Below are positions 6,020 through 63,921 of a stretch of DNA of 64,000 nucleotides, piece by piece. This DNA comes from Escherichia coli. Lineage in GTDB: Bacteria; Pseudomonadota; Gammaproteobacteria; Enterobacterales; Enterobacteriaceae. The DNA lies in NCBI RefSeq assembly GCF_003790525.1, contig NZ_CP033635.1, one strand, 5' to 3'. Under the pieces are notes generated by a model that ran no database searches, was not told the origin of the DNA, and worked only from the letters and a program-made list of their open reading frames with translations. A program made the position numbers and the translations under genes. The first letter of the stretch is position 1; the number at the start of each line of letters is the position of its first letter.

Positions 6020-6523
6020 TTACTGATAGTGTTTTATGTTCAGATAATGCCCGATGACCTTGTCATGCAGCTCCACCGATTTTGAGAACGACAGTGACTT
6101 CCGTCCCAGCCTTGCCAGATGTTGTCTCAGATTCAGGTTATGCCGCTCAATTCGCTGAGTGTAACGCTTGCTGATTACGTGCAGCTTTCCCTTCAGGCGG
6201 GATTCATACAGCGGCCAGCCATCCGTCATCCATACCACGACCTCAAAGGCCGACAGCAGGCTTAGAAGACGCTCCAGTGTGGCCAGAGTGCGTTCACCGA
6301 ATACGTGCGCAACAACCGTCTTCCGGAGCCTGTCATACGCGTAAAACAGCCAGCGCTGGCGCGATTTAGCCCCGACGTATCCCCACTGTTCGTCCATTTC
6401 CGCGCAGACGATGACGTCACTGCCCGGCTGTATGCGCGAGGTTACCGACTGCGGCCTGAGTTTTTTAAATGGCGGAAAATCGTGTTGAGGCCAACGCCCA
6501 TAATGCGGGCGGTTGCCCGGCAT
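6020..6523 (-). CDS. insB: IS1 InsB (C-terminal part of InsAB' transposase)
   Basis: ORF track, 167 aa, recognised InsB. Confidence 0.95.
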
Positions 6524-6717
6524 CCAACGCCATTCATGGCCATATCAATGATTTTCTGGTGCGTACCGGGTTGAGAAGCGGTGTAAGTGAACTGCAGTTG
6601 CCATGTTTTACGGCAGTGAGAGCAGAGATAGCGCTGATGTCCGGCGGTGCTTTTGCCGTTACGCACCACCCCGTCAGTAGCTGAACAGGAGGGACAGCTG
6701 ATAGAAACAGAAGCCAC
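6442..6717 (-). CDS. insA: IS1 InsA (transposition repressor / N-terminal part of InsAB' transposase)
   Basis: ORF track, 91 aa, [23 protein letters not shown]... recognised; A6C slippery motif lies at plus-strand 6460-6466. Confidence 0.95.
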
Positions 6718-7902
6718 TGGAGCACCTCAAAAACACCATCATACACTAAATCAGTAAGTTGGCAGCATCACCAAGGCAGATAAGAAACCAACATGACCGC
6801 GCTACTCACCGGTAAAGGGATACTGCAAAACAGTCGTGTGAGTGCCGGAACCAGTGCCACCAGCAGGCAAATAACGCTGCCATAAATAAACGATCGTCGC
6901 GTGTAATCGCCAGTCTGGGTTAATAAACCAATGGATGAAACAAACGGTGAAAATGGAATTACCGCCAGCGGCACGGTTATCAGCGTCATAAATCCGGTCG
7001 CCACAAAGCTGCGACGATAACGCGTATTCCCCGCGCCCTGTTGCGGATAAAAAACATCCGTGCCACGAATCGCACCGTAGGTATTGCTGATATTTACCAG
7101 ACCTGTAATCACCGCCGTCAGAATAATCCCCGGCGACAAAGCACCGCCACTGCCGAGCGGGAACCACTGCCAGTGCAACTCACCGGAGAGCGAATGCGAA
7201 GAAGGAAAGCAAAAGTACCACAACAACCAGCCGGTTATCGTACCGACCAGCAGGCCATAACGGGCAAAACGTTGCGGCAGGAAGATAATCATCGCCAGTA
7301 CCAGGCACATCACCGCCACCGAGAGCGCGAACGGCGGTAACTGAATTTTAAAATTCGGGTCGGCTATGCCAAACGGCAGCCCGAGCATACCTTTGAAAAA
7401 GATAGTGGTCAGCTGCGCGCCCAGCATCAACATAAACAAGACCATCACCGACGGCGTAAATAACCGCGCCAGACGATGACCTAATCCGCTAAAACCAATC
7501 AACATCGTCAGCACGCCAGAGAGCGCAATTCCCACCGCCAGGCTGGTAGCGATATCGTTGATCGGTGTCCCGCGCGATGCTTCGCCAAGGGTGATAGTCA
7601 GGATGGTTCCCCACCACAGGCCACCCGGCCCTTCCATAATAGCGCGACGATGACCGCAGAACGCCTGAGCGAAGCAGGCCAGTGCGGTAGCAAGAAAAGC
7701 ATATTGCGTGAGCGTAAGCAGGCTACTTTGCGGCAACTGAAAAGCAGAAAGTAGCGTAGGAGGAACCACAACCGTGTTGCAAAAAATAAAGAAAAACCAC
7801 TGAAATCCTGATAACAGGCTTTCGCGGCCCACTGCAAAATTGAACATAAACACACCTTAACCGGAGAATGCCCGCCACAAGGACGGGCATTGCAGGGCCA
7901 GA

Positions 7903-27045: not shown

Positions 27046-27060
27046 CGAGTAGAGGCAAAA

Positions 27061-27423
27061 TTACTCTTCCCGGCCTTTACCCATACTTTTTTGGTCTTCA
27101 TCCGGATAGTGTTTTTTTAGATATTCCAGGACGTTTTTATTGACCTTGTGTTGGGTATACACCCACCCTTTCCAGTAATCAGGTTGGTCCAGGTAAACTT
27201 CTGGCGGAATGGTGAAATCAGAAAGCGTTAACCATTCGGCTAACAGATCGGGGTTTCGTTTCTGGATCAACTGCAACAGCATGATCAGCGACATGGCAGA
27301 GGCAGGAGCCGTACTATCGCCGCTTAAATACTTCCACACTGTCGACCGGTTCGAACGAAAAAGGATCGGTAGCAATGCCCGGTCCAGATTCATTTCATTA
27401 AAAATCTTCTCAAATTCATTCAT
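27061..27423 (-). CDS. Hypothetical protein, 120 aa, no signal peptide; function unknown
   Basis: ORF track; not recognised; divergent from the adhesin gene across an AT-rich intergenic region; not present at this position in my recollection of K-12. Confidence 0.5.
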   Translation of the reverse strand: MNEFEKIFNEMNLDRALLPILFRSNRSTVWKYLSGDSTAPASAMSLIMLLQLIQKRNPDLLAEWLTLSDFTIPPEVYLDQPDYWKGWVYTQHKVNKNVLEYLKKHYPDEDQKSMGKGREE

Positions 27424-27788
27424 TTAAATTTCCTGCCTGGCGTAAACCTCTTAAAAATTGAGATTTATCAAAGAAACGCATTTTAGCACACATCAGGAAC
27501 CGCTTCACGTTTAGTCCAGAAACAGAATTTATTTCGCTTATCAAAACAAGTCTTTACTCTTTTTTACATTGAAAGAGCACGAAATAATTTCCTTTTTTAT
27601 TTATATAAGAAACTATTTTTGTTCCTTATTGGTGGTGTTTACGCTTACACAAGACAAAAATGCGCTTTACATCACACAAATGGCGGCGTAGATTTCGATC
27701 AAATTGCAACGCAGTTTATTTCTTAAAACAATATTATTTGTTTCTTATAGAAACATTAATGCGACTTATTTTGAACAAGAGAAAATGA

Positions 27789-28805
27789 ATGAAAACTGTA
27801 AACGTAGCTTTACTGGCACTCATAATTTCAGCAATATCCAGCCCTGTTGTTTTAGCTGGTGATACCATTGAAGCGGCGGCAACAGAGCTTTCAGCCATTA
27901 ACTCTGGCATGTCGCAATCGGAGATTGAGCAGAAGATTACCCGCTTTTTAGAACGCACAGACAACAGCCCCGCTGCGTATACCTATTTGACTGAACATCA
28001 CTACATCCCTTCTGAAACACCTGATACCACTCAGACTCCCACTGTCCAGACAGATCCTGACGCAGGACAAAAAACCGTTGCCGCTACAGGTGATGTACAG
28101 ACAACCGCCCGTTATCAGAGCATGATCAACGCCCGACAGTCTGCGGTAACTGATGCCCAGCAAACGCAAATTACAGAGCAACAGGCGCAGATCGTAGCCA
28201 CACAAAAAACGCTCGCCGCGACTGGAGATACGCAAAATACCGCGCATTATCAGGAGATGATTAATGCCAGACTGGCGGCTCAAAATGAGGCTAATCAGCG
28301 CACTACCACGGAACAAGGGCAGAAAATGAATGCACTGACAACCGATGTGGCAGCACAACAGCAAAAAGAAAGGGCTCAATACGATAAACAAATGCAAAGT
28401 CTGGCGCAGAAGTCTGTCCAGGCACATGAGCAAATTGAAAGTCTGAGACAAGATTCCGCACAAACGCAGCAACAGTTAACCAACACGCAAAAACGGGTCG
28501 CAGATAACAGCCAACAAATTAACACGCTCAATAACCATTTCGATTCTCTGAAAAACGAAGTTGAGGACAATCGTAAAGAAGCCAATGCGGGAACTGCATC
28601 TGCCATTGCTATCGCCTCACAACCACAGGTGAAAACCGGTGACGTGATGATGGTGTCAGCGGGAGCGGGAACGTTCAACGGTGAATCTGCGGTGTCTGTA
28701 GGAACATCTTTTAATGCCGGAACGCATACGGTACTTAAAGCAGGTATTTCTGCGGATACACAATCTGATTTCGGTGCGGGTGTCGGCGTGGGATATTCGT
28801 TCTAA
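27789..28805 (+). CDS. Miniature trimeric autotransporter adhesin-like protein: signal peptide, Gln-rich coiled-coil stalk, YadA-type C-terminal beta-barrel anchor
   Basis: ORF track, 338 aa; N-terminal signal-like MKTVNVALLALIISAISSPVVLAG; stalk-anchor junction KEANAGTASAIAIASQPQ; anchor GDVMMVSAGAGTFNGESAVSVGTSF...VLKAGIS...GAGVGVGYSF with terminal aromatic; purine-rich RBS-like AAGAGA upstream. Confidence 0.8.
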   Translation: MKTVNVALLALIISAISSPVVLAGDTIEAAATELSAINSGMSQSEIEQKITRFLERTDNSPAAYTYLTEHHYIPSETPDTTQTPTVQTDPDAGQKTVAATGDVQTTARYQSMINARQSAVTDAQQTQITEQQAQIVATQKTLAATGDTQNTAHYQEMINARLAAQNEANQRTTTEQGQKMNALTTDVAAQQQKERAQYDKQMQSLAQKSVQAHEQIESLRQDSAQTQQQLTNTQKRVADNSQQINTLNNHFDSLKNEVEDNRKEANAGTASAIAIASQPQVKTGDVMMVSAGAGTFNGESAVSVGTSFNAGTHTVLKAGISADTQSDFGAGVGVGYSF

Positions 28806-28858
28806 TTTTAACAGCAATTTCTTATTCGCAATTTTCCGCACATTATTTAAGGTTAACA

Positions 28859-29281
28859 ATGATGAATAGCTCCATTAAATCGTTTTCCCTGCTGGCGGTT
28901 ATATTACTGGCTGGCTGTAGTTCACCCACTTCCCGCATCGCAGATTGCCAGGCGCAGGGCGTCAGCCATGACACCTGTTATCTCGCAGAACAGCAGCGTC
29001 AGACGGCTATTTTAAGTGCATCCGAGGCGCAGGCATTTAAAAATGCAGAAGCCGCACAACATGCCCAGGCGGCAAAGAAAGCCATTTATAAAGGATTTGG
29101 CATGACCTTTAGAATGAGCAGTAAGAACTTTGCTTATCTCAATGATTCATTATGTGCAATTGATGAAGACAATAAAGATGCCACTGTTTATCAGTCAGGT
29201 CTTTATAACGTCATTGTTTATCACCACACGGGAAAAGTCGCCTTAATGAAGGAAGGTCAGTTTGTGGGTTATTTAAAATGA
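28859..29281 (+). CDS. Putative lipoprotein, 140 aa
   Basis: ORF track; signal peptide with lipobox LLAGC (Cys20); immediately downstream of the adhesin gene. Confidence 0.6.
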   Translation: MMNSSIKSFSLLAVILLAGCSSPTSRIADCQAQGVSHDTCYLAEQQRQTAILSASEAQAFKNAEAAQHAQAAKKAIYKGFGMTFRMSSKNFAYLNDSLCAIDEDNKDATVYQSGLYNVIVYHHTGKVALMKEGQFVGYLK

Positions 29282-29481
29282 AGGAGCAAAGGAAAATCCC
29301 CCTGACGCATATTATGATTATCGGTGCGTTTATTTTTGCCTTCTTGCAAGTGGTGTTATTAGCCTCCCTGGTTCACGCTGTGAATGTTAACAACGAAATC
29401 CAGGAAGGCTTATTTCAGTCGGGGCGCATTATGGTAGAAAGTTTGCAGCATATTCTTTCGGTGCAAACGGGGATTAACTGA
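29278..29481 (+). CDS. Putative small single-pass membrane protein, 67 aa
   Basis: ORF track; start overlaps the lipoprotein stop (ATGA); one hydrophobic helix IMIIGAFIFAFLQVVLLASLV. Confidence 0.4.
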   Translation: MKEQRKIPLTHIMIIGAFIFAFLQVVLLASLVHAVNVNNEIQEGLFQSGRIMVESLQHILSVQTGIN

Positions 29482-58881: not shown

Positions 58882-62034
<3,153 letters not shown>

Positions 62035-62052
62035 TACAACGTGTAATCACTA

Positions 62053-62076
62053 AGGCCGCGCAAGCGGCCTTTTTTA
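62053..62076 (+). terminator. Rho-independent terminator of acrAB
   Basis: GGCCGC-GCAA-GCGGCC hairpin followed by T6. Confidence 0.7.
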
Positions 62077-62579
62077 TGCATAACCTACGAACATTAAGGA
62101 GTCATTGAACCACCAACTCAGGATCTCATACGAAAACCAGTATTAAACACGTATAAAATTCATAAAAAATACTGATTGTTAGTTAATTTATATTAAGTAG
62201 CGCTAATAGATTTAATAATCCATAATCATTTAGAGGCTATTCTTAATTATTTGCGGTAATTCTTTATTCATTCCTCGGTTATTACGTCATATTCAGAGCA
62301 ATCCTGGTATTAGTGTTACCAATTTCATCTGGCGATAATCCTGAAATGTTATGAACAGTTCGAGCAAACTGCTTTTACCTGCTGCGGGTTAGTGCTAGTA
62401 TGAAAAAGTAAGTCCTGTCCCGCTTCCTTCCTAATTGTAATTTTTCGTAATAATGCGATGAAAACCTGCAAAGAGTGGCTTATAGTTAAGCTAACAAACG
62501 AGAGGGCAAGTCCAGGTCAGTAAGTTTTTTCCATCCCGAAAGGTGTCCGTTAGTTCAACCGCTAAGAAGGGGACGAGTT

Positions 62580-62954
62580 ATGGATGAATACTCACCCAAA
62601 AGACATGATATCGCACAGCTTAAGTTTCTCTGTGAAACCCTGTATCATGACTGTCTTGCAAACCTTGAAGAAAGCAATCATGGCTGGGTTAACGACCCAA
62701 CCTCGGCGATCAACCTCCAGTTGAATGAACTGATTGAGCATATTGCGACTTTCGCACTTAATTACAAAATTAAGTATAATGAAGACAATAAGCTCATTGA
62801 GCAGATCGACGAATATCTGGATGACACCTTTATGTTGTTCAGCAGTTATGGTATTAATATGCAGGATCTCCAAAAATGGCGGAAGTCAGGTAATCGACTA
62901 TTCCGTTGTTTTGTCAATGCGACGAAAGAGAATCCTGCGAGTTTATCTTGTTAG
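62580..62954 (+). CDS. tomB: Hha toxicity modulator TomB (YbaJ)
   Basis: ORF track, 124 aa; recognised TomB. Confidence 0.9.
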
Positions 62955-62979
62955 AATTATTACAACCATGGGTAGAAGT

Positions 62980-63198
62980 ATGTCCGAAAAACCTTTAACG
63001 AAAACCGATTATTTAATGCGTTTACGTCGTTGCCAGACAATTGACACGCTGGAGCGTGTTATCGAGAAAAATAAATACGAATTATCAGATAATGAACTGG
63101 CGGTATTTTACTCAGCCGCAGATCACCGCCTCGCCGAATTGACTATGAATAAACTGTACGACAAGATCCCTTCCTCAGTATGGAAATTTATTCGCTAA
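62980..63198 (+). CDS. hha: Haemolysin expression-modulating protein Hha (H-NS co-regulator)
   Basis: In-frame within track ORF 62734..63198; start placed at [20 protein letters not shown] (72 aa). Confidence 0.92.
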
Positions 63199-63369
63199 TA
63201 AATAATTGGCTTTCGGAGCTATAACCAGCTGTTTATTAAGAATTTTATACTTTATCGCCATGAAGGCATACCCTATGTGATCTTCATCACACAGACGTAA
63301 TGGGAACGTTCTCTTCACTGACTTTTCGTCTTACTGTGTTGCCGCATTTTCAGCAACCGGAGGTCAGTA

Positions 63370-63921
63370 ATGAGCACAGAAAAAGAAAAGATGATTGCTG
63401 GTGAGTTGTATCGCTCGGCAGATGAGACGTTATCTCGCGATCGCCTGCGCGCTCGTCAGCTTATTCACCGATACAATCATTCCCTGGCGGAAGAGCACAC
63501 ATTACGCCAGCAAATTCTCGCTGATTTATTCGGTCAGGTGACAGAGGCTTATATTGAGCCAACGTTTCGCTGTGATTATGGCTATAACATTTTTCTCGGC
63601 AATAATTTTTTCGCCAACTTCGATTGCGTGATGCTTGATGTCTGCCCTATTCGCATCGGTGATAACTGTATGTTGGCACCAGGCGTTCATATCTACACGG
63701 CAACACATCCCATCGACCCTGTAGCACGTAATAGCGGTGCTGAACTGGGGAAACCCGTCACCATCGGTAATAACGTCTGGATTGGCGGACGCGCGATCAT
63801 TAACCCTGGTGTGACCATTGGTGATAACGTCGTGGTAGCCTCAGGTGCAGTTGTCACAAAAGATGTCCCGGACAACGTTGTCGTGGGCGGTAATCCAGCC
63901 AGAATAATTAAAAAATTGTAA
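63370..63921 (+). CDS. maa: Maltose O-acetyltransferase (hexapeptide-repeat)
   Basis: ORF track, 183 aa; recognised Maa. Confidence 0.9.

Follow-up and report, generated by a model that had tools for sequence, protein, structure and literature searches.

The long acrB-tomB spacer of Escherichia coli as the probable transcriptional control region of tomB-hha

The silencing by H-NS of virulence genes and of genes acquired horizontally is modulated by Hha, which TomB counteracts; how tomB-hha is switched is therefore important for biofilm, persistence and the control of virulence. The closest described system is the same locus in E. coli K-12, for which Kim et al. (2012) mapped the transcription start to position 480019 (NC_000913.2) with 53 reads, giving a 5' UTR of 87 nt (PMC3415461, supplementary file 2); for Klebsiella pneumoniae ybaJ, the same study mapped a start site that follows the same promoter and gives a leader of 97 nt. 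Table 2 of Shimada et al. (2014) gives hexamers for tomB-hha that are identical to those of the DNA analyzed here, and the RpoD holoenzyme bound the acrB-tomB spacer in vitro in a SELEX-chip experiment (PMC3946193). The spacer is flagged 'HNS' by genomic SELEX in that publication, with no coordinates given, and a sigma-S/RNA polymerase ChIP-seq peak has been assigned to tomB (PMC4447067). In Yersinia pseudotuberculosis, the ymoBA operon has a CpxR motif 56 bp upstream of its proximal start site, TSS2 (Mol Microbiol 2026; PMC13353760). Phosphorylated CpxR binds to this site in gel shifts, and the activity of the ymoBA promoter is higher in Cpx-activated cpxA mutants and in cpxR-D51E mutants (PMC13353760). 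RegulonDB, as tabulated in PMC7657598, has tomB and hha among the targets of CpxR, and tomB is a member of the CpxR iModulon; it is absent from the direct targets determined by ChIP-exo of E. coli CpxR (PMC7657598). The promoter, the start site, the Cpx regulon membership and the H-NS binding of the spacer are already found in the literature and in RegulonDB. Our additions are the description of an upstream part of the spacer with neither a mapped transcript nor a sign of a product, a few conserved islands within it, including an RcsB-like box, and a promoter-plus-CpxR-box module that, based on sequence alignments, is near-invariant across about 20 enterobacterial genera.

The spacer was analyzed within a 64-kb stretch of E. 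coli DNA (hereafter the window), in which acrB, tomB, hha and maa follow each other in this order on the plus strand. The stop codon of acrB ends at position 62034 and the ATG of tomB lies at 62580; the spacer in between (62035-62579) measures 545 bp with a GC content of 37.4%, and the stretch from the end of the acrB terminator to tomB (62077-62579) measures 503 bp with a GC content of 36.6%. We consider it highly probable that this spacer constitutes the transcriptional control region of tomB-hha, combining a sigma-70 promoter with its start site at 62493, activation by CpxR, binding of H-NS, and upstream DNA serving as a platform. The following features were recognized in it and at its edges:

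62052-62077, plus strand: intrinsic terminator of acrB, with an 8-bp stem (6 G-C pairs), a 4-nt loop and a T run; left edge.
62078-62150, no strand assigned: lineage-specific filler of about 70 bp, with a column conservation of about 0.
62155-62270, no strand assigned: most AT-rich part, with partly conserved islands (alignment and repeat search).
62293-62306, plus strand: RcsB-box-like pseudo-palindrome TCAGAGCAATCCTG, in agreement with TN(G/A)GAN4TC(T/C)NA at 7 of its 8 specified positions.
62346-62356, plus strand: conserved island TA...ATGAA, with ATGAA at 62351-62355 (alignment).
62393-62401, plus strand: candidate extended -10 element TGcTAGTAT, with a predicted start near 62408 and a leader of about 172 nt.
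62437-62451, plus strand: putative CpxR box GTAAT-TTTTC-GTAAT, formed by two tandem pentamers with their centre near -49 and located immediately 5' of the -35 element.
62458-62486, plus strand: sigma-70 promoter of tomB-hha, with -35 ATGAAA (62458-62463), a 17-bp spacer and -10 TATAGT (62481-62486).
62493-62579, plus strand: 5' leader of tomB, 87 nt, with the invariant CCATCCC (62531-62537) and the Shine-Dalgarno sequence AAGGGGA (62567-62573).
62580-62954, plus strand: tomB coding sequence, first gene of the tomB-hha operon; right edge.

When intergenic gaps are counted from the RefSeq annotation of SMS-3-5 over the 64 kb, the acrB-tomB spacer is the longest of 49 (median 124 bp, runner-up 365 bp). 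The first-pass annotation had pointed out a long, AT-rich non-coding gap of 503 bp between the acrB terminator and tomB, which is indeed what is found there, and had called it unusually long and AT-rich; the first of these two attributes stands, but the second does not set it apart, because the other gaps have GC contents of 30 to 56% and the AT-richness of the spacer is therefore ordinary for intergenic DNA. It is by length, not by AT-richness, that this spacer differs from the other gaps of the window. Its GC content is 29-38% over positions 62100-62500 versus 52% for the window, with the lowest value (29%) at 62100-62299, and the annotations of K-12, SMS-3-5 and the sampled complete E. coli genomes leave it empty. 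At its left edge, the acrB terminator is kept in all aligned genera and shows compensatory changes in the stem (e.g., GGCCGCG/CGCGGCC versus GGTCGCG/CGCGACC).

Positions 61900-62700 are 100% identical to E. coli SMS-3-5. K-12 differs from the window across the spacer by 8 substitutions and no indel, and the position of the K-12 start site can therefore be transferred exactly. The spacer was found in 5423 of the 5426 complete E. coli genomes, 15 of these 5423 having less than 80% of it in one piece. In E. coli TUM13773 (NZ_CP128912.1), the match is split, with an IS1 annotated beneath. Elsewhere in the window, an IS1 at about 6020-6720 splits a uracil/xanthine transporter gene in the allantoin cluster (SMS-3-5 annotation), and a strain-specific block with a YadA-family adhesin and hypothetical genes lies between cueR and ybbJ (about 27060-29480). 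When one genome per species was searched with TomB, 80 loci were obtained, which represent about 20 genera of Enterobacteriaceae and in which the upstream neighbour of tomB is acrB wherever the flank is long enough. Of the 76 loci in which the distance from acrB to tomB could be measured, 75 have a value of 439-563 bp, the exception being a locus with a partial acrB match; the long spacer is thus inherited and not an accident of one strain, and this comparison of sequences marks it as an old, maintained feature. In an alignment of 77 distinct spacer sequences, positions 62432-62490 are almost invariant and form the best-conserved non-coding stretch, conservation is moderate from 62490 to the ATG of tomB, and 62155-62430 are weakly conserved, short islands excepted. 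The filler of about 70 bp that follows the acrB terminator is found in Escherichia only, and cannot be aligned between E. coli and the other Escherichia species.

A promoter scan of 1.5 kb gave 4 promoter-like sites, versus 4.3 expected, and only one of them lies in the spacer, ATGAAA-17-TATAGT, which matches the consensus at 9 of 12 positions. As the number of sites equals the chance expectation, the hexamer match alone is no evidence for a promoter. The identity of the promoter is fixed by the agreement of three independent published results, namely the hexamers together with the RpoD binding, the ChIP-seq peak (PMC4447067), which corresponds to 62397-62592 of the window after coordinate conversion, and the mapped start site. 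The 51-nt sequence given for the K-12 start in PMC3415461 is identical to positions 62443-62493, which locates the start of tomB transcription at the A at 62493, 7 nt past TATAGT. This -10 element is present in 78 of 78 loci with enough upstream sequence. The spacer therefore does hold the tomB-hha promoter, as had been proposed from the sequence. No second E. coli start site appears in the spacer, nor between tomB and acrA, in the table of PMC3415461, which stems from one study with few growth conditions and from which weak or conditional starts could escape. A single promoter has thus been mapped close to tomB, but the corollary that the spacer would hold no further sites does not follow, given the CpxR box and the H-NS binding discussed below. 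Within the operon, hha has start sites of its own, 115 and 16 nt before its ATG in K-12 (PMC3415461, supplement), and transcription of hha is therefore possible without tomB. These sites map to about 62865 and 62964, inside tomB or just upstream of hha, and a promoter-like TTCGCA-18-TATAAT lies inside tomB at 62751-62780. Control by PdhR from the spacer was considered and rejected: the site cited for it in the literature, AAcgGaatcgACCAgcT, is located at about 61564-61580, inside acrB. Some 920 nt separate it from the tomB start site downstream.

The putative CpxR box begins 56 nt upstream of the start site. Among Cpx promoters, those of cpxP, degP and spy carry tandem GTAAA-N5-GTAAA boxes, and this is also reportedly the CpxR consensus, as attributed to work by De Wulf from 2002. 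The sequence found here, GTAATTTTTCGTAAT at 62437-62451, agrees with 8 of the 10 bases of this consensus and has the correct spacing, both of its pentamers being GTAAT and not the canonical GTAAA. The bare pattern GTAA-N6-GTAA occurs in four copies in the window, with about one expected and four reached in 1 of 100 shuffles; such a loose pattern is not rare, and the weight of the argument for a CpxR box therefore lies in its conservation. A CpxR-type box was detected in 76 of 78 loci, and in 75 it keeps a constant distance to the -10 element, exactly 56 nt before the inferred start. Considering this conservation and the analogous site of Yersinia, it is most likely that CpxR activates E. coli tomB-hha from the site near -49.

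The spacer is part of a 1.3-kb AT-rich islet (62035-63369) that comprises tomB, hha and both flanking spacers, with a GC content of 39% versus 52% for the window. The islet sits between acrB and maa, which are GC-normal, and its composition is of the kind that H-NS prefers; it surrounds hha, the gene for an H-NS partner. The high-affinity nucleation motif of H-NS is TCGATAAATT. A search of the spacer for this motif with up to 2 mismatches gave no close match and a lone site with 2 mismatches on the minus strand (62439-62448), which overlaps the CpxR box. The composition of the spacer fits binding by H-NS, and the link to H-NS that the first-pass annotation had drawn agrees with the published binding (PMC3946193).

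Upstream of the promoter and the CpxR box, the most AT-rich part of the spacer contains islands consisting of CTGATTGT (62172-62179), a TATAAT-like AATAAT (62214-62219) and two 19-nt direct repeats (62230-62268), and this part is probably protein-binding DNA. The AATAAT was evaluated as a promoter element on either strand and discarded, no consistent -35 element being found in any genus. A search of the spacer for tandem and inverted repeats yielded nothing beyond weak AT-rich pairs. Among the conserved islands, the pseudo-palindrome at 62293-62306 resembles the RcsB box, whose consensus has been given as TN(G/A)GAN4TC(T/C)NA in a publication that does not mention tomB or hha (PMC7913699). In E. 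coli, TCAGAGCAATCCTG fails this consensus at the last base. Most other genera carry TA(A/G)GAATATTCCT(A/G) at the corresponding position, 194-252 nt (median 222) before the start of tomB transcription, and the E. coli sequence is a degenerate version of it; the counterpart in Salmonella, Klebsiella or Kluyvera reads TAAGAATATTCCT(G/A). In its strict form, the consensus was matched in 36 of 78 loci, versus 0.9% of shuffles, and with the last base left free it was matched in 69 of 78, versus 4% of shuffles. We regard it as rather unlikely, but conceivable, that TA(A/G)GAATATTCCT(A/G) acts as a working site for RcsB or an RcsB partner, with tomB-hha integrating a proximal Cpx and a distal Rcs input of which the latter would be in the process of being lost in Escherichia. 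If this reading were true, two envelope-stress pathways would set the level of the H-NS co-repressor Hha. As it stands, the conserved RcsB-like box far upstream is an only mildly new element, defined by a resemblance in sequence.

The leader of tomB had been expected to be long. As the start maps to 62493, about 415 of the 503 bp are promoter-upstream DNA and not leader, and the leader itself is limited to 87 nt, within the range of lengths inferred among relatives (81-101 nt). It could still be regulatory, with CCATCCC pairing to the Shine-Dalgarno sequence and limiting the translation of tomB, or serving as a docking site for a trans-acting RNA or protein. This motif is nearly invariant in 32 genus-level sequences in which its flanks vary, and the sole long-range helix predicted by RNAalifold from these sequences is formed by 3 bp between the CCC of the motif and the GGG of the Shine-Dalgarno sequence. 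In partition-function folding, the Shine-Dalgarno bases are paired with a mean probability of 0.77, of which the pairing specifically with CCATCCC reaches 0.34. Yet the CCC-GGG contact shows no covariation in the RNAalifold prediction, both of its sides being invariant, and the folding energy of the leader is no better than that of shuffled sequence (z = 0.57). CCATCCC is complementary to a Shine-Dalgarno region reading GGGGAT(G), and in Escherichia, where this region reads GGGGAC, the pairing is weakened with no compensating change. Among the titles and abstracts retrieved by a full-text literature search, none dealt with an sRNA acting on tomB. We thus find a regulatory role of the leader rather improbable, and retain the predicted contact between CCATCCC and the Shine-Dalgarno sequence as a lead for translational control, nothing more.

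Less probable still, and in our view doubtful, is a second promoter at 62393-62401 that would produce the leader of about 172 nt in some conditions, with CpxR bound downstream of it blocking this upstream promoter while activating the proximal one. E. coli, Citrobacter, Klebsiella and Raoultella have an extended -10 (TGnTAnAAT) or a perfect TATAAT at a distance of 41-45 nt from the CpxR box, on its upstream side, and the ymoB gene of Yersinia has start sites at both 188 and 106 nt upstream of it, the upstream TSS1 being located just 5' of the CpxR motif (PMC13353760). However, E. coli and these three other genera are the only ones with such an element, which is not seen in Enterobacter, Kosakonia or Kluyvera and of which the other Escherichia species have a weak form; no start was recorded at that site in E. 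coli or K. pneumoniae (PMC3415461), and the element comes with no recognizable -35, as even with TTTACC, at a spacing of 16 bp, only 8 of 12 positions match, under the threshold of the scan. In E. coli only, an inverted pair (62396-62410 and 62438-62452) joins the candidate upstream -10 to the CpxR box.

The spacer had also been said to have room for an unannotated small ORF or sRNA. It contains no ORF of at least 60 aa, and in multi-genus alignments none of its 13 ORFs of at least 8 aa is preserved in frame or in length beyond E. coli. An Rfam scan of 61800-63400 (E <= 10) gave no match near the gathering score (best 22.9 bits versus a cutoff of 66.8), the sub-threshold matches being rejected for their location on the acrB terminator, and a terminator scan found none in the spacer besides that of acrB; overall, the searches of the spacer brought to light no conserved small ORF, no RNA structure of significance, and neither an Rfam family nor a further terminator. 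That the spacer, long enough as it is, would hide a small protein gene or an independent sRNA is therefore very improbable, since each of the ORFs that could speak for it has its own flaw (a 13-codon TTG ORF at 62105-62146, preceded by AAGGAG, belongs to the filler, for which alignment fails even against the other species of Escherichia, has a Shine-Dalgarno-to-start spacing of only 3 nt and is judged to be due to chance; a 21-codon ATG ORF at 62458-62523 begins within the -35 hexamer, and hence before the one start site that has been mapped, and measures 6 codons in other genera; a 13-codon ORF that begins with the conserved ATGAA at 62351 lacks a Shine-Dalgarno sequence, and its length across genera ranges from 5 to over 40 codons), and there is no Rfam match near threshold, second terminator, start site other than 62493, or annotation in the sampled complete genomes.

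We therefore retain the reading of the spacer as the transcriptional control region of tomB-hha, which may be pictured as follows. Transcription of acrAB ends at the conserved intrinsic terminator, and sigma-70 RNA polymerase starts that of tomB-hha at 62493, producing the 87-nt leader with its strong Shine-Dalgarno sequence. Phosphorylated CpxR would bind to GTAAT-N5-GTAAT near -49 and activate the promoter, as suggested by sequence, conservation and the experiments on the orthologous operon, such that envelope stress would lead to more of the H-NS co-regulator Hha and of its modulator TomB. H-NS, whose binding to the AT-rich DNA of the spacer is reported but not positioned, would probably dampen the promoter. 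The approximately 360 bp upstream of the CpxR box evolve fast save for short islands and have no mapped transcript, and are therefore most likely a platform for nucleoid proteins and further regulators that encodes no product. The tomB-hha spacer opens no new question of wide interest.

When compared to the K-12 tomB-hha promoter (Kim et al., 2012; Shimada et al., 2014), that of the window is alike in its hexamers, its 17-bp spacer and its 87-nt leader, without any substantive difference, the two being one locus in different strains, the window belonging to SMS-3-5 or a close relative. The ymoB-ymoA operon of Yersinia is orthologous (TomB/YmoB and Hha/YmoA) and displays the same 56-bp geometry of the CpxR motif, but differs from E. 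coli tomB-hha by a second mapped start 82 nt further upstream and by a leader of 106 nt versus 87 nt. With promoters of the cpxP, degP and spy type, tomB shares a repeat of pentamers spaced by 5 bp upstream of the -35 element as well as a listing in the CpxR regulon, whereas its pentamers are GTAAT and ChIP-exo did not score it as a direct target. Finally, the tomB spacer resembles the other long AT-rich spacers flagged 'HNS' (Shimada et al., 2014) in its low GC content (29-38%), its length and its reported H-NS binding, and it likewise adjoins a constitutive sigma-70 promoter. It stands apart from them in having no positioned H-NS site and no close match to the high-affinity motif, and in that the regulated product, Hha, is itself a partner of H-NS.
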